A DNA stretch of 55,659 bases from an uncultured Mycoplasmatota bacterium (GTDB lineage Bacteria; Bacillota_I; Bacilli_A; RF39; UBA660): contig CAMOYI010000038.1 of the NCBI GenBank assembly GCA_946629885.1, forward strand, positions 1 to 55,659, given 5' to 3'. Both the position numbers and the translations under genes were made by a program. The notes below the pieces were generated by a model. The model searched no databases, had not been told where the DNA came from, and was given only the letters and a program-made list of their open reading frames with translations. Position 1 is the stretch's first letter. The number at the start of each line of letters is the position of its first letter. Shown piece by piece: positions 7,366-48,535 of the stretch.

Positions 7366-9681
7366 CTAACCAGTTATTTGTCTAATTGTATGAATAGGCC
7401 CATTACCGTGCTGATTCTTACTTACCATTGCGTTTATTCTACCCAATAAACATTCTTTAGCATTTCCTACTAGTAATCTATCTAATGTTTCTGGTTCTTC
7501 TAAACTTCCGTATATTCCCCGAATAAAATCTAAGATTTTTTCATTTGGAACTCCTAAAGAAATAAGAACGACATATAATGACTTAAGAGTAGTTGAAGAC
7601 GTAATATGTTTTTCTAATTCATTATAAGCTTGAGCTTTTGATAAACCTACAACAGAACTTATACGACCAGTATGTGGATCTGAACATTTTCTTACAAACC
7701 AACTAGCAGAACTACATTTATTAGGCAGTTTATCTTTTCTAAAGGCGGGTGCTGCATATAAAGAATATGTTTGTCTTATCTGATTTGACTCATCATCTAT
7801 CCGGTTTAATTGTTCATTTACATTTATAATATCGCGATTGCAGATTTGATAAGAGAAAAAATTTTTAACTTTTTCTGTGATATTTGCAATATCTAAATAT
7901 GCAGATCCCTCCCTAGCCTTTAGTGAAATCATTGTAGTTGGCTCTCTTGTATCCGAATTTAATCTTTTGATAGTAATAGATAAAAGCCTTCTTGTAGCAT
8001 TTGAAAACACTACTGAAAGATCTAATCCATTTGATTTTGTAGTATACGTGGCGTAATCGTTGTATTTTTCAGCTTTGCAGGTCCATTGTGCATCTTTATC
8101 AATAGGTAGGTAATCTGATAAATTTACTAGAAATGAGCTGATCTCTGGATTGTGTTCTACCGACATATTTGATCTAACTTTGTTACTTAGGGCTTTTTCA
8201 AAATTAATTATACCATTTGTCTCTCCAAACAAGGCATTAAACCTCTTGGAATCTGCAAATAATCCATAAATTCCCCTAACAAAAGAAATAATATTTTCAT
8301 TTGGAATTCCAAGGCCACATAAAGTAATATATAAGTTTTGTACCGTGTCTTGATCTGTGATTTTATTAAAGAACACTTCTCTAGCCTTTCGTGGCTTTAA
8401 CATTTCGCTAGATTCTCTAAAATGATATTTTTTCTCACTTAATAAGTATCCTATACTCTGTTCTCTAGCATCAACCATACCTAGTCGTCCTGAAGGACCT
8501 TGTTTCCCAACTCGATATATCTTTAACGATTGAGTGCCACTTACAGATGATATATTACTTTTATTCATTTTAACAACAGGTCCTATAATGGCTCTTGGAG
8601 TTACAGAATAATCTCCCAGCATTGAATATTTAGCTAATACAGTGTGTGATTTATTTTTGATGACTAACCGAGCTGCTCCAAATCGAAAATTTACAGATAT
8701 GCTATAGTCTGGATCATTACTTGTTGAGCCTTGATCATATCTACTAATCCCTATCTCATATATATCCATATTATCAGTTAATATTGCAAAAATATATAAA
8801 CCATTGTAATTAATAGAATACGTTGGCAGATTAGTTCTACGATCAAGTCCCAATTCCCAAACGAGATTAGAAGGATTAATTCCAAAATATTTAGCAATAT
8901 TTCCTAATAACTGCACTGCTTTTTCTGCCTCTATATCTTCGATATCGCTTTCTGTGTAGCTAGGATGATTTTCATTAATTCTTCCAACGCCTTGTTCATT
9001 TTCATTCAATGCTTCATAATAGTTTTCACTAAGAATAGCCCAATATTCACTGTTAATTATGCTAGGAAGCCCATGCTTATTATTTAATAGCAATTCTAAG
9101 AAATCTATTCTATTCATTTCTTCGATACCTAATTGTTCCAACAATTTATAGAATATTTTAGCAGTTCTCGTTGAGGTAAAATCGTTCAGTATACACTTTA
9201 AAGCTTCACTTCTCGTATATTTTGTACTAGTCAACATTTCTCCCCGTTTGACCTTATATAATTGCGCTCTATGGTTTTCTTTGCATGGAGCTATAGTAGT
9301 GTTATCAGTTTGCTCATATCCAACGACCATAATGTTATTACTATTAAAATTTGATTTTATTGACATTTCTAAATTGTAATATGGTTTATCCGGTAATTTG
9401 TAAACAAATATTGCGCCTTCTTCATCTAAGGTAAACCTAACCATCTTTTGCTCATAGTCAATGTACAATGAAGCTGTTCTACTTCCATCTTGTTTAGTCT
9501 TAGTAATTAGTACAGATTCTAATTGCCCTTCTGTATTGTTAAAAAAGTTAACATGTAAATCACTAGAAAGATTATAGTTATTTGCCTGTTCTCTCTCACT
9601 ATAGGTTCCTGTAGTTTCAACTACACCTTTTCCTAAAAATTTAAATATACTATTTATAAATTTTCGAGTATTAACTGCCAT
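7366..9681 (-). CDS. hypothetical 771-aa protein with three copies of the same module
   Basis: Long ORF with RBS GAGGA 6 nt upstream of the ATG. Three beta-rich segments each end in a similar helical motif: IFYKLLEQLGIEEMNRIDFLELL, NLYITLCGLGIPNENIISFVRGIYGLF and SLYVVLISLGVPNEKILDFIRGIYGSL. No known domain, TM segment or signal peptide. Confidence 0.7.
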   Translation of the reverse strand: MAVNTRKFINSIFKFLGKGVVETTGTYSEREQANNYNLSSDLHVNFFNNTEGQLESVLITKTKQDGSRTASLYIDYEQKMVRFTLDEEGAIFVYKLPDKPYYNLEMSIKSNFNSNNIMVVGYEQTDNTTIAPCKENHRAQLYKVKRGEMLTSTKYTRSEALKCILNDFTSTRTAKIFYKLLEQLGIEEMNRIDFLELLLNNKHGLPSIINSEYWAILSENYYEALNENEQGVGRINENHPSYTESDIEDIEAEKAVQLLGNIAKYFGINPSNLVWELGLDRRTNLPTYSINYNGLYIFAILTDNMDIYEIGISRYDQGSTSNDPDYSISVNFRFGAARLVIKNKSHTVLAKYSMLGDYSVTPRAIIGPVVKMNKSNISSVSGTQSLKIYRVGKQGPSGRLGMVDAREQSIGYLLSEKKYHFRESSEMLKPRKAREVFFNKITDQDTVQNLYITLCGLGIPNENIISFVRGIYGLFADSKRFNALFGETNGIINFEKALSNKVRSNMSVEHNPEISSFLVNLSDYLPIDKDAQWTCKAEKYNDYATYTTKSNGLDLSVVFSNATRRLLSITIKRLNSDTREPTTMISLKAREGSAYLDIANITEKVKNFFSYQICNRDIINVNEQLNRIDDESNQIRQTYSLYAAPAFRKDKLPNKCSSASWFVRKCSDPHTGRISSVVGLSKAQAYNELEKHITSSTTLKSLYVVLISLGVPNEKILDFIRGIYGSLEEPETLDRLLVGNAKECLLGRINAMVSKNQHGNGPIHTIRQITG

Positions 9682-27132: not shown

Positions 27133-28539
27133 CTAATAAATATCATATGGTATAATACGATACTTTCTAAATAGTGACCCTACATTCGATGGCTTAAACT
27201 GTAATATTTTTGGGCTATCAACTGGATTATCATATTCTTTAACTACGCTCATTTCATTTAGATATGCATCTATCAAGTGCACTATATTTACTGTAAATAT
27301 GTAAGCTTGTCTATCATTATCCAGCTCAACTCTAGTAGCCAATCCAGTTAAAAACGCCAATATATAGTCTATGGTGATATCATTTTTATTTTCCGTGTCG
27401 ATACAAATTTCTATCTCCATATTTTCTTGATAAAAAAATCTATCCTCCAATAAAATGTTATGCAAAAATTTGTCTATTTCCTCATCTGTGCCATTTTCTA
27501 ATTTAAATTCTATTCTGTGTCTAGCGATAAAATTACGAATAAACTCTATTATTCTGTCTTTAATCATCTGCATTTCATCGTGTATTAGGGTTGTATTTGT
27601 TAGTCCATTGCTTCGTTTTATTGCCTTACACCGCGCTTTAAATAGACATCTACTATTCTCTAAAACACGGTTAATATACTCTGCTTGTTCACTTGTAATC
27701 AAAAAACCATTTGTACTCCACTCAATTGTTGATTTGCTAATATCTTTGTAGTTGTTCGGATAAGGATATGGCAAGTGGAGTTCATACGATAAGTCCGATA
27801 ATTTGTTGAATACTTTCCACCATATGTTATGTAAGCTTTCTTCCTGTTCATTAAAACCTAACGAGCTATAAATTTTAAACATATCTTGGAAAGTGATTGA
27901 ATGCCAACACTTTTCAGCTAAAATTCTTTTTAACAACTCTTCTGCAACTTCCTTTGCCATATAGGATCTTTCACTTTCAACTGAACTATTAGCATATTTT
28001 GTATAGTGAAAATCCTCTATTAGTTGCATTAATTCATCATGTTTTCGTATTTTAGATGGTAATAAATCTTTTTCCCCCTGTATAACTATACTATCAGTTG
28101 AAATATATAAGACTCTCTTATCCCATAACATTTCATAAAATTTAATAAACGCTTCAACATATATAACTGCGTACGAAGCGTTGTAAGATTTTTTTCGGTA
28201 ATTTTCACCATGTGTTCGTCTCATGTAATCTTCCATTTTTTCATAAAGTATGAGCCCATCAAAAAGATTTAAAAAGGAAATAAGTATTTTTTGGAGAAAT
28301 TCAATATCATCAGCAAATGGAAGGTTATTTTTTTTAGCAAAACTATAAAATGATGAAAATAGTATATGAGTAAATTTATTATTGTTTGAATATTGATTAT
28401 CAATTGAACTGTTAGTCACACTTTTTATTCTATCTAATAGGGTTCCACAAAAAATATCTGGAAAAACCTCATCCATAAAATTATTTAAAAGGTTAGTTAC
28501 TTGAGCTTGATAGTCCATGGATTCTAATTTTTTTGTCAC
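27133..28539 (-). CDS. hypothetical protein C of the cassette (about 468 aa), paralog of protein B
   Basis: Long ORF. The GTG at 28539 is preferred because GAGGGA lies 7 nt upstream. The ORF-track TTG at 28554 overlaps that RBS. No TM segment, signal peptide, Walker motif or nuclease motif recognised. It shares motifs with the adjacent 28621-30054 product. Confidence 0.7.
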   Translation of the reverse strand: MTKKLESMDYQAQVTNLLNNFMDEVFPDIFCGTLLDRIKSVTNSSIDNQYSNNNKFTHILFSSFYSFAKKNNLPFADDIEFLQKILISFLNLFDGLILYEKMEDYMRRTHGENYRKKSYNASYAVIYVEAFIKFYEMLWDKRVLYISTDSIVIQGEKDLLPSKIRKHDELMQLIEDFHYTKYANSSVESERSYMAKEVAEELLKRILAEKCWHSITFQDMFKIYSSLGFNEQEESLHNIWWKVFNKLSDLSYELHLPYPYPNNYKDISKSTIEWSTNGFLITSEQAEYINRVLENSRCLFKARCKAIKRSNGLTNTTLIHDEMQMIKDRIIEFIRNFIARHRIEFKLENGTDEEIDKFLHNILLEDRFFYQENMEIEICIDTENKNDITIDYILAFLTGLATRVELDNDRQAYIFTVNIVHLIDAYLNEMSVVKEYDNPVDSPKILQFKPSNVGSLFRKYRIIPYDIY

Positions 28540-28620
28540 AAATGATTCCCTCAATTCGTATTTATCTACTATATATCTTTATCCGTCAGATGTAAATAAT
28601 ATTTTTCCCCATAAGTGTTA

Positions 28621-30054
28621 TCAACTTCTCAATCTATATTTCATTATTAGTGATTCTTTATCTTTACCATTTAATTGTAACCCAATTTTTCCATCTATCC
28701 CTGACTTTTCTCCATTCTGCTCTAGAATCAAGTCAGTAGTAGATTTAATCGCATCTAATTCACTATCTATTGCAAATGCAAGATCGACTAGGCTACAAGT
28801 ATAAGTGGTTGTTTTGTCATTAGCACTGGTTTCCGTACGTGGGACAGTTTTCATAAATTCCATTAAGTAACTATTGGATATATCTTCATTTTGTAAAATA
28901 GATACTGTAATTTTCTTTTGCAATGCATATGGATACCTACTTAGACCTTTTTTAGTTATAATACTCATAACGTCTCTTATATTTTGTGGGTATTCTTTTA
29001 ATTCAATATTTAATAATTCTACTAGCGCATCAATTAATCTCGCTAGAAGTTTATTAATCTCTCTTAATGGAATAGAAGCATCTGAGGGATTCTCTTCGAT
29101 TAAAGTTTTTCTAATAACACCTAGATTATCATAAGCTTTAAGTTTTTTTTGTGTTTCAATTAAAATATCGGTAAATACATAGCACGTTGACCCGCCAATA
29201 TGATAAATAGCTTCTTCACTTTGACCATTTCTCTGTTCAATAGGTACGCCTAAATATTTTATAGATAAGTCAGTTAAACATGTTCCTATCATCCACTTCA
29301 TATCTTGCACCCAAACTTCAAACAAATTCCTTCCTAAAGGTGGTACTTCATGTGATAGTTCACATTTTCTTTTGGCAATTTCTACCCACTTTTCATAAGG
29401 TATGATTCTTTCTTTCATCACATAGCGATATAGATTGTTCTTTGTAACTTTCCTATCTATTAAAGTACATGATTTATGTTCATCTAGATTTGGAGATAGA
29501 AAAATCTCAGATTGATTAATTGCTTCTTCTATAGTGTCTTCAAAAATACTATGGGCAATCCTTCTCGCTTCAGCTTGTTGCGAATAATATAGCGAGTATG
29601 CAGATTTTCTAATCTTTATATAATCTTCGTATAACGATAATAAATTATCGTGAATGTTTATCTGCGCGACGCTCAAATTATCTTTTTTTTCGCCTACAAT
29701 AAAACTACTATCAGAATCTAAATATACTTCCTTATCCCATACTGAAAAATAAAATATTAATATGCCATCTAAATCAAGAATTTCGATTTCATTTTTTGTG
29801 GGACTATAACGACAAGCATCCTTAAAAGAATTTATAAAGTTGCTAAGTGAGGTTCCCGATTCAAGTGTTATTATCTTATCTCTTAAAAATCTTTTTTTTA
29901 GTACGGAATAGTCTCCTTCAAACAATCCCTTAATCGAAGACTCGCCAATTGTTTTGATTTTATATCTTAATTCATCATCAAGCTGAAAAGCTACTACACT
30001 CAAAAATTCTTCAATATCTCGACTACAACATTTAGTATTATTCTTTAATTGCAT
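28621..30054 (-). CDS. hypothetical protein B of the cassette (about 477 aa), paralog of protein C
   Basis: Long ORF. The ATG at 30054 is 6 nt after GAGGA, whereas the ATG at 30060 abuts it. No known domain recognised. Confidence 0.7.
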   Translation of the reverse strand: MQLKNNTKCCSRDIEEFLSVVAFQLDDELRYKIKTIGESSIKGLFEGDYSVLKKRFLRDKIITLESGTSLSNFINSFKDACRYSPTKNEIEILDLDGILIFYFSVWDKEVYLDSDSSFIVGEKKDNLSVAQINIHDNLLSLYEDYIKIRKSAYSLYYSQQAEARRIAHSIFEDTIEEAINQSEIFLSPNLDEHKSCTLIDRKVTKNNLYRYVMKERIIPYEKWVEIAKRKCELSHEVPPLGRNLFEVWVQDMKWMIGTCLTDLSIKYLGVPIEQRNGQSEEAIYHIGGSTCYVFTDILIETQKKLKAYDNLGVIRKTLIEENPSDASIPLREINKLLARLIDALVELLNIELKEYPQNIRDVMSIITKKGLSRYPYALQKKITVSILQNEDISNSYLMEFMKTVPRTETSANDKTTTYTCSLVDLAFAIDSELDAIKSTTDLILEQNGEKSGIDGKIGLQLNGKDKESLIMKYRLRS

Positions 30055-30117
30055 TATCATTCCTCTTTCTTATATTATAGATATGAATGTGAATACAATT
30101 TTATTACATTAATATTT

Positions 30118-32575: not shown

Positions 32576-33469
32576 ATGAGAAAAATTATTTTACCTATTA
32601 TTTTACTGCTTTTAATAGCGGTAACGATATTAAAAATTGATGATATTACGACATATACATCAAAGCTGATTGGAGAAGTACCGTCTGTATATGTAAGTGA
32701 TCCGAATGAATATACTACTGATAATGATTATTTTTACGTTCAGAAGACAAAAGACTTTGTACCGTATAGTAAACAAGATATACTTAATATCTTTTATTCA
32801 TTTTTAGATAACGGTTATGAAACTTTCACATTTTATTGTCCAAGCGAATATACAGAATGTATTAACGATATAACGGCATTAATAAATAACCAAACGGTTA
32901 TAACAGACATAGGAAACTTTGTACATCCATTTAATAACTTTAGTGATGTATACTTGACTACAAGTTCATCTGGAGAGGTGAATATAAAGATTAAGAAGAC
33001 ATATACTGACGAAGAGATAGTCAAAATAGAAAAGAAAGTCGATGAGATCATTGAAGCTAACATAACTGAAGATATGGATATAAATGATAAGATATTAAAA
33101 ATACACGATTATATAGTAGATAATACAGTTTACGATACTAGTGAAAGAGATGGAGAGAACTCTTATACTCTACTATATGAAGGAAAATCTAAATGTGCTG
33201 GATATGCTGATACATTAGCAATATTTCTTCATAGATTGGGATTAAAGAATTTCAAAATTGGAAGTGAAAAGCATGTTTGGAATGCGGTATACATCGATGA
33301 TAAGTGGCAACAAATAGATGTCACCTGGGATGATCCAGTAGTACAAAATGGTGCTAGTATTAGTAATACTATAAGACATAAATTTTATATGATTGACACA
33401 TCCACACTTTTATCATACGATACTACAGAACATAACTTCGATACAAAGATATATCTAGAAGTAAAATAA
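32576..33469 (+). CDS. transglutaminase-like (papain-fold Cys-His-Asp) extracytoplasmic protein
   Basis: N-terminal TM/signal anchor (ILPIILLLLIAVTIL). It contains GKSKCAGYADTLAIFLHRLG...EKHVWNAVYIDDKWQQIDVTWDD, the transglutaminase-core C...H...D arrangement. Start taken at 32576. Confidence 0.75.
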   Translation: MRKIILPIILLLLIAVTILKIDDITTYTSKLIGEVPSVYVSDPNEYTTDNDYFYVQKTKDFVPYSKQDILNIFYSFLDNGYETFTFYCPSEYTECINDITALINNQTVITDIGNFVHPFNNFSDVYLTTSSSGEVNIKIKKTYTDEEIVKIEKKVDEIIEANITEDMDINDKILKIHDYIVDNTVYDTSERDGENSYTLLYEGKSKCAGYADTLAIFLHRLGLKNFKIGSEKHVWNAVYIDDKWQQIDVTWDDPVVQNGASISNTIRHKFYMIDTSTLLSYDTTEHNFDTKIYLEVK

Positions 33470-33495
33470 AAACTACACATTAGTGTAGTTTTTAT
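33468..33495. terminator. bidirectional intrinsic terminator
   Basis: AACTACAC-ATTA-GTGTAGTT flanked by an A-run and a T-run. It sits between the convergent transglutaminase-like and lipoprotein genes. Confidence 0.7.
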
Positions 33496-33496
33496 T

Positions 33497-33916
33497 TTAC
33501 TGTGCGGCAATTAAATCTATAAAATCGAATTCTACGCTAGAGGCTTTACTAAAATCTTTATCTAGGCTTAACGAAAACTCTAATGAACCACCCTGTGGTA
33601 TTTCTTCATTAGAATAACTTTCTAGTCTACCAATTTCCTCGCCTTTAGAATCGCTAACGATTACGTCGTATCGTCCAAGGGTAACGGCTTCACTTCTTGA
33701 ATTAATTAAGTTAAAACTCATAGTTGTATATTTCCCATCAAAGATAAAGTCGATGTCTTCGATTCTTATACCATAGTATTCCTTATTCTCGATAACCCCT
33801 TTTTCCTTAACTTCCACAGTGTTTGACTTTTCTGGATTCTTTTTATTTTCACTTTTCTTTCCAAAGCATCCAGTTAGAACTAGTAATAAAGCGATTAATA
33901 TTAAAATTTTTCTCAT
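33497..33916 (-). CDS. small lipoprotein encoded 10 nt downstream of the giant pilin-like gene
   Basis: Lipobox LLVLTGC followed by a 115-aa beta-rich domain. No promoter or terminator is visible in the 10-nt gap, so co-transcription is likely. Confidence 0.65.
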   Translation of the reverse strand: MRKILILIALLLVLTGCFGKKSENKKNPEKSNTVEVKEKGVIENKEYYGIRIEDIDFIFDGKYTTMSFNLINSRSEAVTLGRYDVIVSDSKGEEIGRLESYSNEEIPQGGSLEFSLSLDKDFSKASSVEFDFIDLIAAQ

Positions 33917-33926
33917 TTTTATCCTC

Positions 33927-36900
33927 CTATTCTAATATATAGCACTTTTTATTATCAAGTTTATACTTTCCTGCTCTACAGCGATTAAGGCAATTATCCA
34001 TAGCTTCTATTTCGTCTGTATATGCAATTGTTGTGTCTATACTACAATAATGAGCTGTATCATATGATAATTGTCCGAGCGTTTCTTTTATACATTTACT
34101 ACTAATGCCACATGTTGAACTACTACATGTATAAGGACTATCACATGTATAAACATATATATCTAGAACACTTCCATAATTATATCTAGAACACTCTTCA
34201 CTTGCTTTTGCAAAAGTATCATAATATTGATCAGTCAGTGAACAATAATATTTTTTCTCTGATGTAATAGATTTTGAAACAGTCTTCTTACATGTACTAT
34301 TCTGATTACAGTTTGCTCCATCACTGCATGTGTAGCCAGAACTACATTTATATACATAATAATTTGACACAGTACCTGCAATTACACGAGAACAAGCAGT
34401 TCTTGCAGCCTCTTCTGTATCATAGCTACTGTTTGTAAGTGAACAATAATATTTATAGTTTGTTGTTGAATCCTTTTCGTCATACTTTGTACATGTGCTA
34501 TTTTGATTACAACTTGATTCATCACTGCATGTGTAGCCGGAAGGACAGCCATATGTTACATTAGTTGTAACATTTCCATTTTTAACAGTGTAGCAGTTGT
34601 CTTCAGCATCGCTATAGCTAGTATAATTGTCATTGTTCAAGCTGCACTTATATGTGTAAGTTTTATATAATTTGGCACTATCAGAAAATGAGCAGGCACT
34701 ATTTTGATTACAATCGGCACCATCACTACAAGTAAACCCACTTGGACAACCATATGTTTTAACTTCATTTATAGTTCCTGGAGTAGATTTAGTACAATTG
34801 TCGATTGCTTCAGTTTGGTTGTCATATATTTCATTATCTAGAGAACATTTCCATTTAGTTGATCCATATACTTTAGTCTGTTTAGTACAGATGCTATTTT
34901 CCTTACATGTACTACCGCTGCAAGTAAAGCCGCTTGGACAAGTATATGTAGCCGTATATTGTATAATTCCTGGTTTGTTTGCAATACAATCAGATTTAGC
35001 TTCTGATTGAGTTTCATAAACATTGTCATTTAAAGAACACTTCCAATTTGTTGCTGTCAATGGCTGCTTTGATTCCGTTTTACTACATGTGCTACTTGAA
35101 TTACAATTAGTTCCATCACTACAAGTATAGCCACTTGGACATGCATATACTGTCTTACTCACAACTGAACCTGATGTTGTTTTTTTACATTCATTTACCG
35201 CATCCTGCTGTGTATTATATATTTTGGAATTATAAGAACATGTATATGCTACTGTTCTAGTTACTGCTGTTGATTCAATTTTTGTACATTTGCTCGACGA
35301 CTTACAAGGATTAGTACTACAAGTGTAGCCACTTGGACAAGAGTATTTAGTAGTTGCAGTAGGCGAAGTCGTCTTCGTACATGTTCTTGTAGATTTTGAA
35401 GTACAAGTGGTATTTGAAGTACAAGTTTTACCTTTTACACTACTATCAGGGCAATCTGTTCTCGAGTCAGATTGAGTATATCCGCTTGGACAACTTGCTG
35501 GGCAAGAACCAGTACAATAGTATTGTCCATATGTTAAAACTGCGCTCGAATTACATGTCCATGTCTCTTTTCTGTAGTAGTTTATCGAACTACATGAATC
35601 TGTAAACTCTAGTCTAGACGAATCACCGCCGCAAACATAGTTATTCATGTCATTTATGCAATCGGTCTTAGAAGAAAAATATCTTTTTGGTGTTAATTCT
35701 CGTTCCCCTCCAGTTATACAGGCTCCTTGCCAGAAATATCTAGTATTTGTGTGAGTACATTTTGTCTTTTTCTTACCTTCTCTACCAGCTTTACAATCAT
35801 AATTCACATGTTCTTCTGAACATGATGTTTGATTGGTACTTGTCAATTTATTTCCCCAACTATAGGTATATCCAGTTATACTACAATAACTTGTATATTT
35901 ATAACTACCACTAGTAATTATTGTAGCAGTACATTTGCTTGTCGACTTACAAGGACTATCGCTACAAGTAAACCCGCTTGGGCACGAGTAAGTCGTAGTA
36001 GATACGAGGTTAGCTGTCGTATTTTTTGTACATTTGCTTGTCGATTTACAAGGATTATCACTGCAAGTAAACCCGCTTGGGCATGCGTAAACATTTGTAG
36101 TACCAATTGAACCTGTTTCAGTCTTTTGACAATTATTAGTTGCAGTTGTTTTATCATCGTAAGTCCCACTTAACTGATTACCAAAATAGCAATCATAAAC
36201 TGTCTTTTGGCTTGCTGACACTGTTGAGGTTTTACTACATGTACTATTCTGATTACAATTAGCACCATCGCTACATGTGTAACCATTTTCACAATAATAT
36301 TTGGTAAACGAAGTTACAGTACCATATTCGCTATCATTACAATATTTGAGTGCGTCTTCCTCAGTATTGTAATAGTCGACCCAAACTCCATCGATGTAAC
36401 AATTGTATTTATTTGTCTTTATTACAGGCACTGTCATTTTACAAGTACTATTTTTGTTACAATTAGTTCCTCCACTACAAGTATAGCCAGTTGGACATGA
36501 ATATATATATGATGACTCTACTGTACCTGATGTGCTTTCATTACAATAATTATTAGCATCTTCTTCTGTATCATAACTATAGACAAAGACTCCATTAATA
36601 TAACAATTATATTTAGTTGAAACGACTGTAGGCGTTGTAGTCTTAATACATGTACTATTCTGATTACAATTAGCACCATCACTGCAAGTAAATCCACTTG
36701 GACACTGATATTTATAGTTAACTGTTATTTCGCCGCTTAACTTTTTTTGACACTTGCTGATTGCTTCATCATGCGTAGTAAATGATCCTATATATTCTCC
36801 ATCTACATAACATAAATAATATGTAGAATTAACAGGTGAAGTTGTACCAGACACTTTTCTACAAGTACTAGTGGACTTACAAGGAACATCACTACAAGTA

Positions 36901-38318
36901 TAGCCAGTTGGGCATGAATACTGAGAAGTTCTAGTAACTGTACCAGATTCTGTTGTTGAACAATTTTCTACTGCCTCTGAACGGTTATCATATATTTTTT
37001 CATCTATTTCACATTTGTATTTTAGCTCGCTTAAAACATTCTCTTCTATTGTTTTAACACATTTACTTGTCGATTTGCAAGGATTCGTATTACAAGTATA
37101 ACCATCATTACAAGTGTACTTTGAAGACACCGTAATTGTACCAGATTCATAAATTGAACAATTTTTTTCTGCATCAGCATAATTATCAAATATTTCATTA
37201 GTCACGTCACACTTATATTTTTTAGTTTCTGTTGTTTCTTTTTCTTCCCTTTTTATACATTTGCTCGTAGATTTACATGGGGTTGTGTTACAAGTAAATC
37301 CATCAGAACAATAATATGTTTTTACGGTAGTTACAGTTCCACTTACAGGGTTTTCAATTATTAGTTTTCTGCTTATTTCATTAGAAATATTGCCGGCGTA
37401 ATCGAATGAGTGTACTTTTACCGTTGCATCTGTTAAATCGTTTGTAATTTTATATTTCGGATTTACAACGGGTTGTGCTTCCCCTATCTTGTAAGAATAC
37501 TTAACCCTCTCACTATAAGTATCACGAGATCCACTAAATGCTAAGTAAAAGTCGTCAGTTATTTCAATATTAGGGTCTGTCGGATTTGTCGCATCAACTT
37601 TTATATTCTTAATTACACATGATCCTTCAGTCCCATCTTCATATTTTACATAACCGTAATATGTAGATCCTGTAGTACTCGATAATGGCATCTCTCTTAA
37701 ATCGTTATACCATTTTTCTGAACTCTTACTTATGCCATATTTAACTGGGGTTACTCCTTCTTTTTTGAATACTAGAATTAATTTATTATTTTCTCCTATA
37801 TACCAACCATTAGTTCCTTCAGTTCCCTCTACAATTAAGTCGCATAGTTTATTTTCTGGTGAAATAGTATCATATGGATCAAATTCTTCACCAAAGTGAG
37901 CATCTACATCTTTTTGATCGGCATCGATAATTATTTCTATTGGTTCTTTATCAAAACACTTCGATTTATCCCTTGGGTTTGTCACTAAACATTCGTCATT
38001 ATCTTCTGGGTCATAGTATCCTAGTTCAATTAGTTCTTCTACTGTCGTATTAAACTTATATACACATTTATCTCCACTACAATCACAGTGTCCACTTGTT
38101 TCTGTACATTCTCCATACTCTTCTTTTATCTTTTCACTATTCTCTTTTGCATATTCTCTTGCCGCTTGTTCGATTAATTTTACTTTGCTGTTATATGCTC
38201 TATTATCAATTCTTCCTCTAGCACCACTTATTCCAGCGATAGCCATTGTTGCAATTAGTGTTATAATCACTAAAACTGTAATTATTTCGACAATTGTAAA
38301 TCCTTTACTATTTTTCAT
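33927..38318 (-). CDS. giant (1463 aa) type IV pilin-like protein with cysteine-rich tandem modules
   Basis: The N-terminus MKNSKG|FTIVEIITVLVIITLIATMAIAG is a class III (prepilin) signal: Gly-Phe cleavage site, Glu at +5 and a hydrophobic helix. Residues 335-1450 carry at least 15 copies of Y-x-C-P-S-G-[YF]-T-C-S-D-x(2,3)-C-x(3,4)-S-x-C. These alternate with Y-x-C-x(7,10)-[YF]-[DN]-x(3)-[ED]-A-x(3)-C units. Confidence 0.8.
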   Translation of the reverse strand: MKNSKGFTIVEIITVLVIITLIATMAIAGISGARGRIDNRAYNSKVKLIEQAAREYAKENSEKIKEEYGECTETSGHCDCSGDKCVYKFNTTVEELIELGYYDPEDNDECLVTNPRDKSKCFDKEPIEIIIDADQKDVDAHFGEEFDPYDTISPENKLCDLIVEGTEGTNGWYIGENNKLILVFKKEGVTPVKYGISKSSEKWYNDLREMPLSSTTGSTYYGYVKYEDGTEGSCVIKNIKVDATNPTDPNIEITDDFYLAFSGSRDTYSERVKYSYKIGEAQPVVNPKYKITNDLTDATVKVHSFDYAGNISNEISRKLIIENPVSGTVTTVKTYYCSDGFTCNTTPCKSTSKCIKREEKETTETKKYKCDVTNEIFDNYADAEKNCSIYESGTITVSSKYTCNDGYTCNTNPCKSTSKCVKTIEENVLSELKYKCEIDEKIYDNRSEAVENCSTTESGTVTRTSQYSCPTGYTCSDVPCKSTSTCRKVSGTTSPVNSTYYLCYVDGEYIGSFTTHDEAISKCQKKLSGEITVNYKYQCPSGFTCSDGANCNQNSTCIKTTTPTVVSTKYNCYINGVFVYSYDTEEDANNYCNESTSGTVESSYIYSCPTGYTCSGGTNCNKNSTCKMTVPVIKTNKYNCYIDGVWVDYYNTEEDALKYCNDSEYGTVTSFTKYYCENGYTCSDGANCNQNSTCSKTSTVSASQKTVYDCYFGNQLSGTYDDKTTATNNCQKTETGSIGTTNVYACPSGFTCSDNPCKSTSKCTKNTTANLVSTTTYSCPSGFTCSDSPCKSTSKCTATIITSGSYKYTSYCSITGYTYSWGNKLTSTNQTSCSEEHVNYDCKAGREGKKKTKCTHTNTRYFWQGACITGGERELTPKRYFSSKTDCINDMNNYVCGGDSSRLEFTDSCSSINYYRKETWTCNSSAVLTYGQYYCTGSCPASCPSGYTQSDSRTDCPDSSVKGKTCTSNTTCTSKSTRTCTKTTSPTATTKYSCPSGYTCSTNPCKSSSKCTKIESTAVTRTVAYTCSYNSKIYNTQQDAVNECKKTTSGSVVSKTVYACPSGYTCSDGTNCNSSSTCSKTESKQPLTATNWKCSLNDNVYETQSEAKSDCIANKPGIIQYTATYTCPSGFTCSGSTCKENSICTKQTKVYGSTKWKCSLDNEIYDNQTEAIDNCTKSTPGTINEVKTYGCPSGFTCSDGADCNQNSACSFSDSAKLYKTYTYKCSLNNDNYTSYSDAEDNCYTVKNGNVTTNVTYGCPSGYTCSDESSCNQNSTCTKYDEKDSTTNYKYYCSLTNSSYDTEEAARTACSRVIAGTVSNYYVYKCSSGYTCSDGANCNQNSTCKKTVSKSITSEKKYYCSLTDQYYDTFAKASEECSRYNYGSVLDIYVYTCDSPYTCSSSTCGISSKCIKETLGQLSYDTAHYCSIDTTIAYTDEIEAMDNCLNRCRAGKYKLDNKKCYILE
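33969..37316 (-). repeat. in-frame coding tandem repeats (33-60 codon units) inside the pilin-like gene
   Basis: The exact 20-mer CATGTACTATTCTGATTACA occurs at 34291, 36238 and 36649. Two 54-nt blocks at 35931 and 36030 are 50/54 identical with a 99-bp period. Confidence 0.85.
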
Positions 38319-38333
38319 ACTTTCACCATTTTA

Positions 38334-38362
38334 AGTATAGCATTTAAGCTGATATTTTTCAA
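38334..38362 (-). promoter_or_regulatory. sigma-A-like promoter for the pilin-like gene
   Basis: Minus strand reads TTGAAA, 17 nt, TATACT, then GGTGA and the ATG. The leader would be very short. Confidence 0.45.
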
Positions 38363-38391
38363 TAAAAAAGCTTATTTAATAAAAAGCTTAT
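38362..38391 (-). terminator. intrinsic terminator after ruvB
   Basis: Two AAGCTT palindromes form a 6-8 bp stem, followed by TTTTTATT on the minus strand. Confidence 0.5.
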
Positions 38392-40037: not shown

Positions 40038-40982
40038 TTAGTCTTTTCTCTCATGCAATTTAACTACACAAAGAAGTTTTTCTGTTATATCATCTATGCT
40101 AATTTCGTGAGTGCTTTCGTCATAACTGATAGTAACATTTTTATTACAGTGTGAAGACGAATACTCGTACTTATCATAGTCTATGTTATCTTTATCAATC
40201 GGAGTAATATCACTATAGGTATCATCTAAATATAATAATTCGATTTCCTGCTTACTAGCCTTTTTAAAATATATATCACATGCAATGTTTTTAGCATCTG
40301 TTTCAATATCTATATCATTTTTTTCTTCATTCCAAGTTATTGTTGCATCCTCTGTACAAATAGTATCGAGATACAAGTATTCTCCGTTGCTATCAGGATT
40401 ACTTAGAACTTCCACTGGGTTTGAAAGATCTTTATCTAAAAGTATAGTTCTTTTTACTAGTGGTTCTTCATAGTATCCTTCTACTATATTAGAGTATATG
40501 TCGTTATCGACATAGCCACTACTAATTGTAAAAGATACTTCTTGCTCAGTACTTGTAGCGTTATCGATTACTATTCTTATAGAAACTGATGCACCGTTAG
40601 TTCCAATGATACCATAGGTATTTGGTCTTTGATTATATGAATAATAAACTTTAACATCATCACTATTTGTTTCACAATTTAGGGCATATTTTGTATCAAT
40701 ATCATTTTTACTAGTTAAAGTAAAATTTACTATCTTTTTATCATTAGCACCAACTTTTATCGTAGTTGACTCGCTTTTATCATTTGATAATGTATAGCTT
40801 AAATCTGCTATTTTAATGTTGATGGCATTTTGCTCCTTGCTAATTACAAATGATGAGTATGTTATTCCAGTGAAAATTGTAAAAATTGCAATAAGAGAGA
40901 TGATAACAAAAAGACGCGATTGAGTTTTATCTGCGTAATTGATCTTATTGATAATTTTTTTAGTCTTTTTAAAAATTTTCAT
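40038..40982 (-). CDS. hypothetical secreted or anchored protein, N-terminus reminiscent of the TasA/camelysin (SipW-type) signal
   Basis: A basic N-terminus and TM helix are followed by GITYSSFVISKEQNAINIKIADLSYTL, which resembles the TYAxFxD...N motif of SipW-dependent signals. The rest is beta-rich and acidic. Confidence 0.4.
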   Translation of the reverse strand: MKIFKKTKKIINKINYADKTQSRLFVIISLIAIFTIFTGITYSSFVISKEQNAINIKIADLSYTLSNDKSESTTIKVGANDKKIVNFTLTSKNDIDTKYALNCETNSDDVKVYYSYNQRPNTYGIIGTNGASVSIRIVIDNATSTEQEVSFTISSGYVDNDIYSNIVEGYYEEPLVKRTILLDKDLSNPVEVLSNPDSNGEYLYLDTICTEDATITWNEEKNDIDIETDAKNIACDIYFKKASKQEIELLYLDDTYSDITPIDKDNIDYDKYEYSSSHCNKNVTISYDESTHEISIDDITEKLLCVVKLHERKD

Positions 40983-45580: not shown

Positions 45581-46804
45581 TTACTCCTCACTTTTGCAAG
45601 TATTACCTTGCCACTTGTTTGGTTCATATACTGCACCTACAAATAGCATTTCTCCAGAATTTTTTTCTCTAATTATATACATAAATGGTTTATCAAAAGC
45701 CATATTTATCTCTTTTTTTTCTTGTACCACCATAGATTTTTCTAGTAAACCAAAATATGTAACCGCTGCTGCCTTTGTGCCATTTTCACTCAAGTCAATG
45801 TGTGTCTTATGTACAGCTTCACCAACGTATATTTCCTTTTCAGTAATATTTTTAAAATTCGCACTTTCCGTAAACGCAGCTTTAATTCCCATAGCATTTA
45901 ATACCCCAATAAAATCATCGATTGTATAATCATATTCAAATCTCGGAAGCATTAAATTCAATCTTTCGTTATTTTTTAAACTTGTTCTCGAGTCAATAAT
46001 CTTTGAAATGTCATCTTCAGTTAGATTATCTATGTAGTCATTTAAGCTCTTTTCTGGCATTAATCCTATAAATTCTAGGTTTATATTTTCACCTTTAACA
46101 TCACTATAAGTCTTATATGGTAATACAATTCCTTTAACTCCATCTAAATCGATATATTCAATTTCGTCAAATGCTTTATTCATTCCCTCGACATATACTA
46201 CTCCAGTTGGCGAATTAAATTTTTCCTTGCTCGTCATATTGCATTCAAACTTATATTGCCATTCGACATCTATTGCAAGCGCATTTGATAATCCAACAAC
46301 AAAATTAGGATTGATAGAATCTAGTATTTTATTAATCATATGTTTAGTTTTCTCATCTACCCATTTGTTAATCATATCAGGTGTTTTAAAACTATCATAA
46401 ATTATTTCGCTTGCATACTTACTCTTCATGTCGTTAACAAAACTTTTCTTGATGCTATTTGAATATGTATCCTTAATAAATAATGCGTTTGCAACAGAAA
46501 TATGGTCTTTTACATCCAACAGTTTAATGCTTCTATTTGGAATGATATCAGACAATTCTTTATGAGTATTACCACTTGAACCGTCTTTTAACATAGATAG
46601 CGCTATTTCAATTGAATATGGACTAATCAAGTAATTGGTTTTTTTATTTTTATTTACTTCTTTTATAAGTCGAAGATTAAAATTGGAATTGTCTTGTCTT
46701 ACTTTTTCATACTTTTCTATACTATCCATTTTTTTATTAATTAGGAATAACGCTCCCGCAAGGACGAGAATAATAATGATCATGTTTAATAAGTTTTTTT
46801 TCAT
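45581..46804 (-). CDS. serpin-family protease inhibitor with N-terminal signal anchor
   Basis: About 407 aa. NYLISPYSIEIALSMLKDGSSGNT is the serpin N-terminal motif. The hinge ENGTKAAAVTYF and the C-terminal FDKPFMYIIRE...LFVGAVYEP are typical of inhibitory serpins. The ATG at 46804 follows AAAGGAG. Confidence 0.85.
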   Translation of the reverse strand: MKKNLLNMIIIILVLAGALFLINKKMDSIEKYEKVRQDNSNFNLRLIKEVNKNKKTNYLISPYSIEIALSMLKDGSSGNTHKELSDIIPNRSIKLLDVKDHISVANALFIKDTYSNSIKKSFVNDMKSKYASEIIYDSFKTPDMINKWVDEKTKHMINKILDSINPNFVVGLSNALAIDVEWQYKFECNMTSKEKFNSPTGVVYVEGMNKAFDEIEYIDLDGVKGIVLPYKTYSDVKGENINLEFIGLMPEKSLNDYIDNLTEDDISKIIDSRTSLKNNERLNLMLPRFEYDYTIDDFIGVLNAMGIKAAFTESANFKNITEKEIYVGEAVHKTHIDLSENGTKAAAVTYFGLLEKSMVVQEKKEINMAFDKPFMYIIREKNSGEMLFVGAVYEPNKWQGNTCKSEE

Positions 46805-46819
46805 ATAACCAACTCCTTT

Positions 46820-47020
46820 AAAAAAAGAGCTATAATACAAGGACGATTTTGTCGTGGTACCACCTTGCTTTATAACTCTACTAGTTAACTTATTTTACTT
46901 AACGCGTAATGCTCGATCTTTCTCATTCTGCAACATTCCCTAGATATACTAATTAGTTTACACCAACCACTAACTCTCTATGTAGCACTCTCTAAGTACT
47001 CCTCAGAACTCCTCAAAAGT
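46820..47020 (-). promoter_or_regulatory. T-box leader RNA, candidate Val (GUU) specifier
   Basis: The minus strand contains AGUA and AGAGAG elements. A distal hairpin UUAGU-GGUUGGUGUAA-ACUAA follows. Next comes GAA-U-GUU-G (GUU at 46932-46934), then the T-box core AAGGUGGUACCACG (46853-46866). AAGG[UGGUACC]ACGA-CAAAA-UCGU-CCUU forms the bulged helix. A U-run (46820-46825) precedes the serpin RBS. Confidence 0.7.
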
Positions 47021-47125: not shown

Positions 47126-48535
47126 GTGATGAAGATGTTTGAAGAACAACTATTGGGCAATACAGCATCAAGCGATAACAATAAAAATGAAAACAACTCA
47201 ACAAATACAGCTTCTATCTCACAAGAACGAGAATTTATTTCAGATTTGGAAAATGTTCCAACATTTGATTACGAAAATATCCCTATAGTAGATATAGTAA
47301 ACGATATGATAGTTGATTCTATTAAAAGAGGAGCTTCTGATATACATTTCGATCCTTTCGATACTGGAATACACATAAGAATTAGAATTGACGGCGATTT
47401 ACATAACTATACGCTTGTACCTCTATCGATGAAAAAAAACATGATTACTCGTGTAAAGATCATCTCTAATATGAACATAACTGAATCGAGACTACCTCAG
47501 GATGGCGCAATAAAGGGATTGATTGAAAACTATAACGTGGATTTACGTGTATCGTGCCTACCTACCAATTTGGGTGAAAAGATAGTTATACGTATTTTGG
47601 ATTATTCTATGAGTAGTGCCGGATTAGAAAATTTGGGCTTTTCGAAAGAAAATCTAGTATTAGTAAATAGGATGTTAGCGATACCTAACGGGATTATATT
47701 GGTAACTGGTGCAACTGGTAGTGGTAAATCTACAACGGTTTATTCAATGTTACAAAAGTTGAACACTGAAAATAGAAACTTAATAACTGTAGAAGACCCA
47801 ATAGAGATGAACATCGATGGAATCAATCAAGTACAAGTAAATAGCGAAATAGGAATGACTTTTGGTTCGGCTTTAAGGAGTATTTTACGTCAGGACCCGG
47901 ATATAATAATGATCGGTGAAATACGTGACTCTGAGACGGCAAAGATCGCAGTACGAAGCGCTATTACAGGTCACTTAGTTCTATCTACTGTTCACACAAA
48001 TGATTCACTTAACACTATTGAAAGACTTCTTGATATGGATGTAGAAAGATATTTATTGGGTGCTGCTATCTCAGGTATTATTTCACAGAAGTTAGCAAGA
48101 AAGCTGTGTGATAATTGTAAAAAATTGCGCCCTACTACAGACTACGAGAAACTAGTATTTAAAAAGAACTTGGGACTAGATGTAAACGAAATATATGAAG
48201 CTAAGGGATGCTCTAAATGTACAAACGGATATAGAGGTAGAATACCAGTTCATGAAGTATTGTTAATCAATCAGGAAATAAAAGATGCCATATCACAGGG
48301 ATGGCCAAAGTCAAAACTAAGAGAACTCGTATTTTCAGAAAATTCTCACATAACGTCTCTATTGCAGGACGGGTTAAAAAAAATTCTTACTGGAACTACC
48401 ACTTTCGATGAAATATTAAGACTAGTCGAATTAGATGATGAAGAAATGAATTCGTATGAGCCTGTCGATTGCAATACAAAAGATGTCGAAGATAATAGTA
48501 ATGATGAAAAAGAATTAGAAACATTTACTTTCTAA
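47126..48535 (+). CDS. GspE/PilB/ComGA-family secretion ATPase
   Basis: Contains ILVTGATGSGKSTT (Walker A), Asp-box, IIMIGEIRD (Walker B) and a His-box (GHLVLSTVHTND). The tetracysteine motif is CDNCKK...CSKCTNGYRGR. The start is ambiguous among GTG 47126, ATG 47129 and ATG 47135. Confidence 0.88.
   Translation: MMKMFEEQLLGNTASSDNNKNENNSTNTASISQEREFISDLENVPTFDYENIPIVDIVNDMIVDSIKRGASDIHFDPFDTGIHIRIRIDGDLHNYTLVPLSMKKNMITRVKIISNMNITESRLPQDGAIKGLIENYNVDLRVSCLPTNLGEKIVIRILDYSMSSAGLENLGFSKENLVLVNRMLAIPNGIILVTGATGSGKSTTVYSMLQKLNTENRNLITVEDPIEMNIDGINQVQVNSEIGMTFGSALRSILRQDPDIIMIGEIRDSETAKIAVRSAITGHLVLSTVHTNDSLNTIERLLDMDVERYLLGAAISGIISQKLARKLCDNCKKLRPTTDYEKLVFKKNLGLDVNEIYEAKGCSKCTNGYRGRIPVHEVLLINQEIKDAISQGWPKSKLRELVFSENSHITSLLQDGLKKILTGTTTFDEILRLVELDDEEMNSYEPVDCNTKDVEDNSNDEKELETFTF

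Follow-up and report, generated by a model that had tools for sequence, protein, structure and literature searches.

The giant pilin-like gene lies within a window of 55.7 kb (55,659 nucleotides, the whole stretch of DNA that was analyzed) from an uncultured, Erysipelotrichaceae-like bacterium of gut or rumen, where it is surrounded by housekeeping genes. Its parts and its immediate neighbors are listed in Table 1. The promoter-like site 5′ of the gene matches the consensus at 10 of 12 positions and carries a TG before the −10 element. The GGAGG ribosome-binding site of the downstream lipoprotein gene overlaps the stop codon of the pilin-like gene, and lipoprotein homologs are found 3′ of the giant gene in seven of the nine family copies examined. 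Read from the promoter-like site, this overlap, and the recurring pairing, the two genes are predicted to form an operon. The hairpin that follows the lipoprotein gene is likely the terminator of this two-gene unit; it is absent from the terminator scan list, having fewer than three G-C pairs.

Table 1. Features of the giant pilin-like locus and the assembly ATPase gene (positions in the window).
Feature	Position	Strand	Basis or remark
AT-rich hairpin ACTACAC-n4-GTGTAGT plus T-run, 3′ of the lipoprotein gene	33463..33490	(-)	Read by eye
Partner gene, 139-aa lipoprotein, lipobox LTGC	33497..33916	(-)	Co-oriented with the pilin gene
Giant pilin-like ORF	33927-38318	(-)	ATG to TAG, 1,463 aa
Terminal variant unit, family-wide C-terminal cap (C-x3-C...G-K-Y...C-Y-I-L-E), and stop codon	33927..34151	(-)	
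Repeat array 2, aa 992-1389, six full units	34152..35345	(-)	Repeat HMM; di-repeat model pLDDT 80
Non-repetitive Cys-rich central insert, aa 812-991, about 22 Cys	35346..35885	(-)	
Repeat array 1, aa 335-811, six full 66-70-aa units and two A-only half units	35886..37316	(-)	Repeat HMM
β-sandwich 2, aa 250-334, family-wide D-x-A-G-N motif at its end	37317..37571	(-)	AF2 model
β-sandwich 1, aa 159-249, "GTNGWY...YGYVK" domain	37572..37844	(-)	Model pLDDT 84-88
Rest of α1 and β-sheet pilin head, aa 36-158, six conserved Cys (71, 78, 80, 85, 110, 121)	37845..38213	(-)	AF2 model
Class III (prepilin) signal, aa 1-35: leader MKNSKG, predicted cleavage before F7, E11 (= E+5), hydrophobic α1N	38214..38318	(-)	
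Ribosome-binding site GGTGA of the pilin gene	38323-38327	(-)	
Sigma-70-like promoter, TTGAAA-17-TATACT with TG extension	38334..38362	(-)	In the 78-nt ruvB-pilin spacer; consensus match only
Solitary PilB/GspE-type assembly ATPase, 469 aa, Walker A GATGSGKST, CxxC...CxxC	47126..48535	(+)	

The protein begins MKNSKG/FTIVEIITVLVIITLIATMAIAG, that is, MKNSKG/FTIVEI followed by a hydrophobic helix, which an earlier note on this DNA had read as a prepilin-type N-terminus. The window protein passes the cut-offs of both relevant models narrowly, with 21.9 bits against 21.2 for Pfam PF07963 (N_methyl; IPR012902) and 16.4 bits against 16.3 for TIGR02532, a marginal result with less than 1 bit to spare in each case. 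Its relatives all reach 25–31 bits on N_methyl, and G−1, F+1, T+2, and E+5 do not vary among 14 family members. The closest PDB sequence matches are the α1 helices of pilins and pseudopilins, and these matches cover α1 only. The models and the conservation support the prediction of a class III (prepilin) signal rather than an ordinary Sec signal anchor, as the earlier note had argued. Assignment to the Com pseudopilins (ComGC/GD/GE) was rejected, the NCBIfam equivalog level being missed (ComGC, 25 bits versus 75; ComGE, 15 versus 49), as was assignment to the type II secretion pseudopilins GspG/H (GspG, 23 bits versus 89); the matches to the ComGC, ComGE, and GspG models are all confined to α1. 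The pilin head that follows has the Cys cluster previously ascribed to it (C71-x6-C78-x-C80-x4-C85), and its six cysteines are invariant in orthologs. An AF2 model of moderate confidence (pLDDT 47–82) predicts a helix at residues 9–68 and strands at 79–92 and 126–142. The Foldseek matches of the N-terminal model are dominated by Ig-like domains, not pilins.

Behind the head, the modular layout is as first described: an Ig-like region, repeats, an insert, and further repeats. The segment originally singled out as Ig-like, VKVHSFDYAGNISNE (aa 298–312), falls inside the second of two β-sandwiches predicted by AF2. In Foldseek, the β-sandwich region gives tandem Ig/BIg/FN3 matches such as SiiE (E 6e-6), and the distant pilin-like proteins P0005 and L004 contain three to four copies of the domain that forms the first sandwich. 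An HMM constructed from the repeats recovers 15 units, eight at aa 335–821 (six full, two half) and seven at aa 992–1445, so that the protein contains 13 full units with six Cys each and two half units. This agrees with the previous estimate of at least 15 mini-domains in two arrays split by a Cys-rich insert, which we place at about aa 812–991. The insert, which has a counterpart throughout the family, includes a two-Cys “CPSGYT” hairpin. Each full unit consists of an A hairpin with four Cys and a B ββα module with two, and the A and B modules also occur independently of each other. Across 38 repeat units that are only 29–50% identical, five Cys columns show no variation and the sixth is at least 90% conserved.

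The repeat has no significant match in Pfam, NCBIfam, PDB sequences, or Foldseek, and the possibility that it belongs to a described domain family was not borne out. An EGF-like, cEGF, or follistatin-type module was rejected: the window protein has no Pfam match to one, the best EGF-like/follistatin-type match in a PDB profile search has an E-value of 6.4, and the Foldseek comparison with EGF-like folds proposed earlier yields follistatin as the top match at a non-significant E 0.25 and TM 0.14. A and B are two undescribed Cys-framework mini-domains. An LPXTG/sortase-anchored fibrillar adhesin was also rejected, as the C-terminus reads ...CRAGKYKLDNKKCYILE and contains no LPXTG motif.

When 1.84 billion representative proteins were searched with a profile of the repeat, 26 hits were returned, about 17–19 of which represent the same pilin-headed family, all of them metagenomic. 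Among the members found, none is larger or richer in Cys than the window protein. Identity between orthologs is 65–86% in the head and 36–60% in the stalk, and the number of units varies within the family (15, 13, 12, or 8). A sister contig carries a tandem paralog that is identical to the window gene from −60 to about +760 nt and 55–75% identical thereafter, the two genes thus sharing an identical 0.8-kb 5′ end. Such variation of stalk length and sequence between paralogs and strains, behind a constant head, suggests adhesin diversification.

Type IV filament machinery is represented in the window by a single gene, that of the PilB/GspE-like ATPase, which appears intact (T2SSE match, 1e-122) and lies 9 kb from the pilin gene on the opposite strand. 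It scores 477 bits against both the GspE and PilB models, below their equivalog cut-offs, and 267 bits against ComGA. The search for pilus machinery that the earlier note had called for was therefore answered in part: the ATPase was found, and neither the 55.7-kb window nor about 7 kb of further sequence on the sister contig contains a prepilin peptidase (Peptidase_A24), a T2SSF platform, PilM/N/O, or a major pilin. We infer that the protein may be displayed by a type IV pilus or pseudopilus. In a possible though rather doubtful alternative, the class III signal would serve only as a cleavable membrane anchor, and the protein would be a lone wall-spanning fibrillar adhesin that never enters a pilus or pseudopilus. 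Consistent with this, the genes at the seven family loci examined are solitary among housekeeping genes, none of them adjacent to pilus machinery or near a pilus operon; the extracellular part is very large (about 1,430 aa), and the conserved partner, rather than being a pilin, is a protein tethered to the membrane. However, E+5 and the entire α1N are strictly conserved, and these form the filament assembly interface, which a plain anchor would not need; the PilB-like ATPase is encoded in the window, and in the relative L015 a 140-aa pilin gene follows. A separate point against the filament reading is that a subunit of 160 kDa may be too bulky for any filament.

The protein contains exactly 112 cysteines (7.66% of residues), in line with the earlier hand count of about 112, an even number, at 7–8 percent. 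Across the other 45 genes of the window the Cys content is 0.86% and nowhere above 2.1%, and exported-looking neighbors have 0–1.6%. As had been remarked for Gram-positive anaerobes, such a content is atypical for exported Firmicute proteins, the phylum tending to avoid exported cysteine (PMC2823432). In two orthologs with 48–51% identity overall, 95 of 100 aligned cysteines are conserved in both, and the remaining 12 of the window protein fall in repeat-number gaps of the alignment; this retention at about 50% identity, together with the near-invariant Cys columns of the repeats, indicates that the Cys pattern is not due to chance. The Cys count is even in 15 of 19 family proteins. The A hairpins occur either with all four Cys (48 cases) or without C2, and several of the latter (P0024, P0026, P0016) keep only C1 and the Cys at the C4 position, so that C2 and C3 are lost together.

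These patterns, and the independent occurrence of A and B modules, point to disulfides rather than one metal site. Three intramodule disulfides would staple each full unit, C1–C4 and C2–C3 in the A hairpin and C5–C6 between strand and helix in B, and the stapled units could produce a protease-resistant, semi-rigid rod. The host is presumably a strict anaerobe, a point that counts against a disulfide-stapled stalk. A strict anaerobe lacking a Dsb system might form no disulfides, in which case the cysteines would bind metal, as in a Zn(Cys)4 site in the A hairpin, or stay reduced as reactive thiols. We consider this improbable. The anaerobic habitat favors it, as does the lack of a thiol-disulfide oxidoreductase among the window genes, and the B module weakly resembles ββα zinc fingers and rubredoxin-like folds (Foldseek, E 0.5 to about 9). 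The zinc-finger matches are all non-significant, however, CxxC knuckles are absent from the protein, and His is very scarce (7 of 1,463 residues); in addition, B offers just two Cys, Cys counts are mostly even, and C1 and C4 persist where C2 and C3 go as a pair. Finally, a surface or appendage protein made during sporulation is very improbable: spore coats and exosporia typically contain Cys-rich proteins that can be cross-linked, the organism has the sporulation genes SpoIIP, SpoIIM, and SpoIVB, and the gene is near spoIIP (less than 2 kb from rpsT-spoIIP in several relatives), but rpsT-spoIIP-lepA-hemN is ordinary conserved Bacilli synteny, other members adjoin ftsK, uvrC, or rplQ, the promoter-like site is of the sigma-70 type, and no spore-coat family was matched in Pfam or NCBIfam.

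The explanation that we favor, with a probability of roughly 0.55, is that the gene encodes a type IV pilin-like surface protein, giant and modular, in which a pilin anchor carries a disulfide-stapled stalk adhesin, and which is a predicted tip subunit. The preprotein would be inserted in the membrane and cleaved after Gly6 by a prepilin peptidase encoded elsewhere. Its α1N would keep the processed protein anchored, and about 1,430 residues would lie on the outside. A type IV filament machine, of which the PilB-like ATPase would be part, could then use it as a low-abundance tip subunit, a placement that would project the stalk past the thick cell wall, with the central knot and the C-terminal cap as candidate ligand-binding parts. 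A more elaborate proposal, whose parts are unlikely to hold jointly, sees in the locus a system of cassette-type variation, acting on a new fiber, disulfide-knotted or thiol-reactive, at the type IV filament tip in strictly anaerobic Erysipelotrichaceae of gut and rumen. Tandem paralogs would recombine through the identical 0.8-kb promoter-plus-head, swapping or deleting stalks that differ in length and sequence, the window representing one such deletion; the stalk would be oxidized by an unknown extracytoplasmic pathway or exchange disulfides with Cys-rich host mucins.

If the favored explanation is correct, no known modular type IV pilin would be larger or more elaborate than this one, which comes from a lineage with, to our knowledge, no cultured, characterized pili, and two undescribed Cys-framework mini-domains would join the bacterial surface-module repertoire. 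The protein would moreover depart clearly from the Cys exclusion seen in exported Firmicute proteins, implying that an anaerobic gut/rumen commensal either has a route for oxidative folding or makes use of exposed thiols. The constant head, variable stalk, and recurrent tandem duplication could reflect host- or phage-driven adhesin diversification. General impact is limited because the family is small, with about 20 clusters among the representatives searched.

Modular pilins are adhesins, probably located at the tip (PMC8179133). With its N-terminal pilin module and non-filament-specific modules, the window protein is a modular pilin sensu Raynaud et al. 2021 (PMC8179133); that definition used InterPro/Pfam signatures, and the census could not have counted this protein because its extra modules have none. 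The most extreme case in the census, an 860-residue Candidatus Falkowbacteria pilin with 12 IPR013211 repeats (PMC8179133), likewise places a long tandem-repeat array behind an N_methyl head. The window protein has a different repeat family and is 1.7 times longer, in line with the earlier remark that even known modular pilins of streptococci are far smaller. Streptococcus sanguinis PilB (vWA) and PilC (lectin) share with it a monoderm host, a class III signal, a small pilin module with grafted modules, and a proposed role as tip-exposed adhesins (PMC8179133, PMC9934059). These pilins each carry a single known InterPro domain, and their genes belong to the pil locus, whereas the window protein, of about 1,460 aa, has two β-sandwiches and 15 undescribed units and is encoded away from a pilus locus, its incorporation being predicted. 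CofB (ETEC), ComZ (Thermus), and GspK (type II secretion) also have extra domains unseen by domain databases and a proposed tip location (PMC8179133), but these are β-repeat/β-sandwich, β-solenoid, or α-domains, and none is an array of Cys-stapled mini-domains.

The repeat unit itself resembles follistatin FS and EGF-like (cEGF) modules and the cysteine-rich eggshell membrane protein CREMP in that a sub-module with a helix comes after a small β-hairpin stapled by Cys. The “Y-x-C-P-x-G-Y-T” motif recalls the cEGF hairpin, and in the relative P0006 a stretch of 16 residues reaches the cEGF cut-off; the Cys differ in spacing and number, however. A TraN-like protein, P0019 (PF06986, 3.5e-19), contains eight copies of a B-like module, W-Y-C...Y...(E/D)A...C, which makes B a reusable extracytoplasmic mini-domain. 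TraN is a Cys-rich surface protein for mating-pair stabilization in F-type conjugation; P0019 has neither a pilin head nor the A hairpin, and the window protein has no TraN core. The Gram-positive repeat-stalk fibrillar adhesins, or “periscope” proteins, are Sec-exported and anchored C-terminally by LPXTG/sortase, with Cys-poor Ig-like repeats in strain-variable copy number. The window protein has a similar stalk of tandem small domains varying in unit number but is Cys-rich and anchored by an N-terminal pilin helix. Grafting a module onto a pilin is an established principle, and the earlier suggestion of a new adhesin or fiber class was overstated. The protein is a rare, extreme variant of the known modular-pilin design rather than a new kind of system, and what is new here is the module, an undescribed repeat, and the scale.

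The giant gene is an intact open reading frame (see the table), and the description that suits its product best is that of a giant modular type IV pilin-like protein. The product has exactly 112 cysteines (7.66% of residues), and threonine plus serine make up 25.6%. Across the 45 other likely genes in the window, cysteine accounts for 0.86% of residues and never exceeds 2.1%; in the exported-looking neighbours it accounts for 0–1.6%. The earlier note, made from the sequence alone, had located the gene, its length and its N-terminus (MKNSKG|FTIVEIITVLVIITLIATMAIAG) correctly, as it had the cysteine cluster of the head (C71-x6-C78-x-C80-x4-C85) and the 'VKVHSFDYAGNISNE' segment; its hand count of about 112 cysteines and its two-array layout were likewise borne out. 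An exact-sequence look-up returned no record for this protein or for the SpoIVB encoded in the window.

The N_methyl motif, which the earlier note had proposed to check, is present (PF07963, 21.9 bits against a cut-off of 21.2; TIGR02532, 16.4 against 16.3). Beyond this N-terminal motif, the whole protein matched nothing above cut-off in Pfam or NCBIfam. Sub-threshold matches to ComGC, GspG and GspH are confined to α1, and among PDB sequences the N-terminus is best matched by helix α1 of Geobacter-type pilins and of GspG. In an AlphaFold2 model of residues 1–334 (mean pLDDT 74), built from an alignment of 14 family sequences, residues 9–68 form an unbroken helix and β-strands occupy residues 79–92 and 126–142, a predicted arrangement that we interpret with moderate confidence as a pilin lollipop. 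Two β-sandwiches, at residues 159–242 and 250–319, are well predicted (pLDDT 80–89); their Foldseek matches are Ig/BIg/FN3 modules in tandem, from giant adhesins that include SiiE (E = 6e-6) and GhpA.

Features of the giant pilin-like gene, its product and the surrounding window, with selected features of related loci
Feature	Location	Strand	Details
Giant pilin-like gene	33927-38318	-	1,463 aa; ATG to TAG
Extended -10 sigma-70-like site	ruvB-pilin spacer		TTGAAA-17-TG-n-TATACT
Ribosome-binding site of giant gene	ruvB-pilin spacer		GGTGA
Full repeat units	aa 335-743		n=6, 66-70 aa each; repeat HMM
A-only half units	aa 744-811		n=2; repeat HMM
Cys-rich non-repetitive insert	aa 812-991
Full repeat units	aa 992-1389		n=6; repeat HMM
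Terminal variant unit fused to C-terminal cap	after aa 1389		...C-x3-C-RAGKYKLDNKKCYILE
Partner lipoprotein	33497-33916	-	139 aa; lipobox LTGC; starts 10 nt past giant gene's stop codon
PilB/GspE-type ATPase	47126-48535	+	469 aa; T2SSE 1e-122; Walker A and tetracysteine motif
Bacterial serpin gene	45581-46840	-	adjoins valS; Pfam Serpin, 6e-67
314-aa protein	40038-40982	-	between ruvA and obg; no family match
473-aa protein	27133-28554	-	downstream of spoIIP; no Pfam/NCBIfam match
479-aa protein	28621-30060	-	adjacent to 473-aa gene, downstream of spoIIP; no Pfam/NCBIfam match
Large ORF	7366-9681	-	771 aa; no Pfam/NCBIfam match
Partner homologues	L008 11676-12188; L015 12215-12631; L016 11788-15698
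Tandem array of distant group	L004 83-7230		[246-aa membrane protein][834-aa N_methyl protein][246-aa][965-aa N_methyl protein]
Pilin of distant group	L004 9320-9769		149 aa

Cleaved by a prepilin peptidase, such a protein would be incorporated into a filament and displayed there, a reading to which we assign a probability of roughly 0.55. A pilin anchor and Ig-like base would carry a long Cys-stapled stalk together with a conserved knot and cap; knot and cap could bind a ligand, and the protein may function in adhesion. The main rival, that the pilin helix only anchors a stand-alone fibril, we consider rather unlikely. The gene content of these loci bears on both readings. No peptidase A24, T2SSF or PilM/N/O gene is found in the window, a regular-expression scan of the window found no further class III signals, and the 7-kb rightward extension of the sister contig contains no pilus genes; at the loci examined, pilus machinery never adjoins the family genes. 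At one of them (L015), the gene for an ordinary pilin of 140 aa follows the partner gene, and the window encodes a solitary, apparently intact PilB/GspE-type ATPase, scoring 477 bits on the GspE and PilB models alike versus 267 on ComGA. This ATPase is without the PilB N-terminal domain and lies on the strand opposite to all its neighbours, with the serpin gene on one side and a pair of M16 peptidase-like genes on the other; no platform or pilin gene is found beside it. The host is a low-GC spore-former with SpoIIP, SpoIIM and SpoIVB.

An HMM built from the repeats identifies 15 units in the window protein. A full unit comprises an A hairpin, Y-x-C1-P-S-G-Y-T-C2-S-D-x2-3-C3-x5-C4-x-K, and a B module, K-Y-x-C5-x-L-x4-7-Y-x-T-x2-E-A-x3-C6. 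The 38 units compared, taken from four proteins, share just 29–50% identity in pairs; five of the six cysteine columns never vary, and in the sixth conservation is 90% or more. Tandem Repeats Finder detected no DNA-level repeat array in the giant gene, which indicates that the units are ancient and have diverged, and that slipped-strand variation is unlikely. An AlphaFold2 di-repeat model, built from 30 di-repeat sequences, contains short β-hairpins and one short helix per unit (pLDDT 80, pTM 0.26), the pTM being expected for an elongated bead-on-string chain. With this model, Foldseek found nothing at E<0.1 in the PDB or in the viral structure library BFVD; the top PDB matches were follistatin FS domains (E = 0.25), followed by C2H2 ββα zinc fingers (E>1). 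The best match of the repeat profile among all PDB sequences was the cysteine-rich eggshell membrane protein (CREMP), at a non-significant E of 6.4. In the related protein P0006, a 16-residue 'Y-x-C-P-S-G-Y-T-L' segment scores at the cEGF cut-off. By the Pfam, NCBIfam, PDB-profile and Foldseek checks, the repeat falls outside any described domain family. The two mini-domains are undescribed, and the terms EGF-like hairpin and helix-containing sub-module are descriptions rather than statements of membership, given that no database match is significant.

The cysteines are under constraint: for 100 of the 112, both orthologues have an aligned position, and 95 of those cysteines are kept in both at an overall identity of about 50%. 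Fifteen of the 19 family proteins have an even number of cysteines. The four-cysteine A and two-cysteine B modules are found independently of each other, and A hairpins occur in a four-cysteine form (n=48) and in a second form without C2. In P0024, P0026 and P0016, several C2-less hairpins retain only C1 and the cysteine at the C4 position, suggesting that C2 and C3 are gained or lost together. This pattern of loss would argue against a single Cys4 metal site, and the arrangement of cysteines appears to fit nested C1–C4 and C2–C3 disulfide staples with a C5–C6 strand-to-helix staple. Firmicutes exported proteins generally exclude cysteine (PMC2823432), and DsbA and VKOR homologues exist in some clostridia (PMC12453122). 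The reading as a cytochrome-like electron carrier was rejected, as the protein has only seven histidines and matches no haem-binding family.

A full HMMER search with the unit profile against 1.84 billion cluster representatives returned 26 proteins at E<1e-3. About 17–19 of these have a common architecture: a prepilin N-terminus, (K/R)GFT(L/I)IE(L/I); a head with 'ACTTVGMLINKGFL'; an 'NWY' and a 'DEAGN' β-sandwich; B modules, with A hairpins in some members; a central Cys-rich knot; and a C-terminal cap, 'C-T-N-Y-C-x2-G-x-Y-Y-x3-C-Y-x-L'. These relatives are 565–880 aa long with 3–6% cysteine, and all come from metagenome assemblies, mainly as singleton clusters, none of them named. The window protein forms an extreme subgroup with P0002 (1,328 aa), P0003 (1,337 aa) and P0004 (1,070 aa), to which it is 48–70% identical in BLASTP local alignments. 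P0002 is from 'uncultured Erysipelotrichaceae bacterium RUG11867', the RUG series being rumen MAGs. The other profile matches are unrelated proteins reusing one sub-module. The TraN-like P0019 (737 aa) has eight B-like modules (W/Y-Y-C...Y...E/D-A...C) and the unrelated secreted proteins P0016 and P0028 have runs of 'CP-x-GYTC' hairpins, indicating that the sub-modules circulate independently outside the pilin family. A more distant group, P0005 (834 aa) and its neighbour (965 aa), has in common with the family only the pilin head and three to four copies of the 'GxNGWY...YGYVKD' β-sandwich; in these proteins the sandwiches stand in place of Cys-rich units.

The family is rare. A first word-indexed homologue search gave just five matches, one with the N-terminal profile gave mainly generic or fragmentary pilin-like proteins, and a scan of genome contigs gave a single locus, in the RUG11867 MAG. 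All 50 loci returned from metagenome contigs matched by generic pilin α1 only, and none has the Cys-rich stalk. No paper on Cys-rich pilins of Erysipelotrichaceae was found in the literature. The lineage carrying the family is very small and uncultured.

Family genes always lie amid housekeeping genes, with ruvB, ftsK, uvrC, rplQ or alaS upstream and often a transglutaminase-like gene, rpsT and spoIIP nearby. In the window, a 78-nt spacer separates the giant gene from ruvA-ruvB upstream. A pseudogene or artefact was rejected in view of conserved orthologues and synteny, and prophage or mobile-element cargo in view of the housekeeping flanks and a composition near that of the surroundings. The 314-aa protein, also encoded in the sister contig, has an N-terminus (...IFTIFTGITYSSFVISKE) resembling a SipW/TasA-type signal peptide.

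The giant gene and its partner form an operon-like pair: the GGAGG ribosome-binding site of the partner overlaps the giant gene's stop codon, and an AT-rich hairpin with a T-run lies 3′ of the partner. Partner homologues, small membrane-tethered proteins with a lipobox or TM anchor, a β-rich body of about 120 aa and no assigned family, are found downstream of the big gene in seven of nine family copies examined, in one to three copies per locus, and are absent at P0006 (L007) and P0036 (L010). The window's partner matches no Pfam family and has weak similarity in the PDB to the PmoB cupredoxin-like β-sandwich domain (E = 0.02–0.07).

The sister contig, ENA ERZ28612950 scaffold_416 (L001, 78 kb, metagenome), is 99.6–99.7% identical to the window and carries, in order, ruvB, P0004, a 141-aa lipoprotein gene, the 1,463-aa gene and the 139-aa lipoprotein gene. 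The P0004 paralogue and the 141-aa lipoprotein constitute an extra cassette missing from the window (window positions 37476-38378 compared with L001 10001-13765). The two big genes of the scaffold are identical, with one mismatch, from about -60 to +760 nt (~820 bp), a stretch comprising the promoter, pilin head and first β-sandwich; past it, paralogue identity falls abruptly to 55–75%. The segment absent from the window is exactly that between the two identical stretches; either a deletion allele produced by recombination or collapse of the 0.8-kb repeat during assembly could account for the window's one-copy state. The unit of big pilin plus partners is also duplicated in tandem in L016 and the P0005 group. 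Among orthologues, identity is higher in the head (65–86%) than in the stalk and central insert (36–60%), and the number of units varies between 15, 13, 12 and 8. Because there is no DNA-level tandem repeat, this variation would arise by recombination between paralogues rather than by slippage. The constant-head, variable-stalk arrangement of the paralogues is intriguing.

Modular pilins are an established concept, PilB and PilC of S. sanguinis being adhesins that are probably located at the pilus tip (PMC8179133). A census counts over 1,200 modular pilins, which fall into 264 architectures and of which the most extreme has 860 aa and 12 repeats; pilins with unannotated modules are under-counted (PMC8179133). 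The modular pilin-like design proposed in the earlier note stands, but its suggestion of a possible new class goes too far; what is new here is the two undescribed mini-domains and the scale, the modular-pilin kind being already known. Compared with known modular pilins, the window protein goes further in size, module type and cysteine content.
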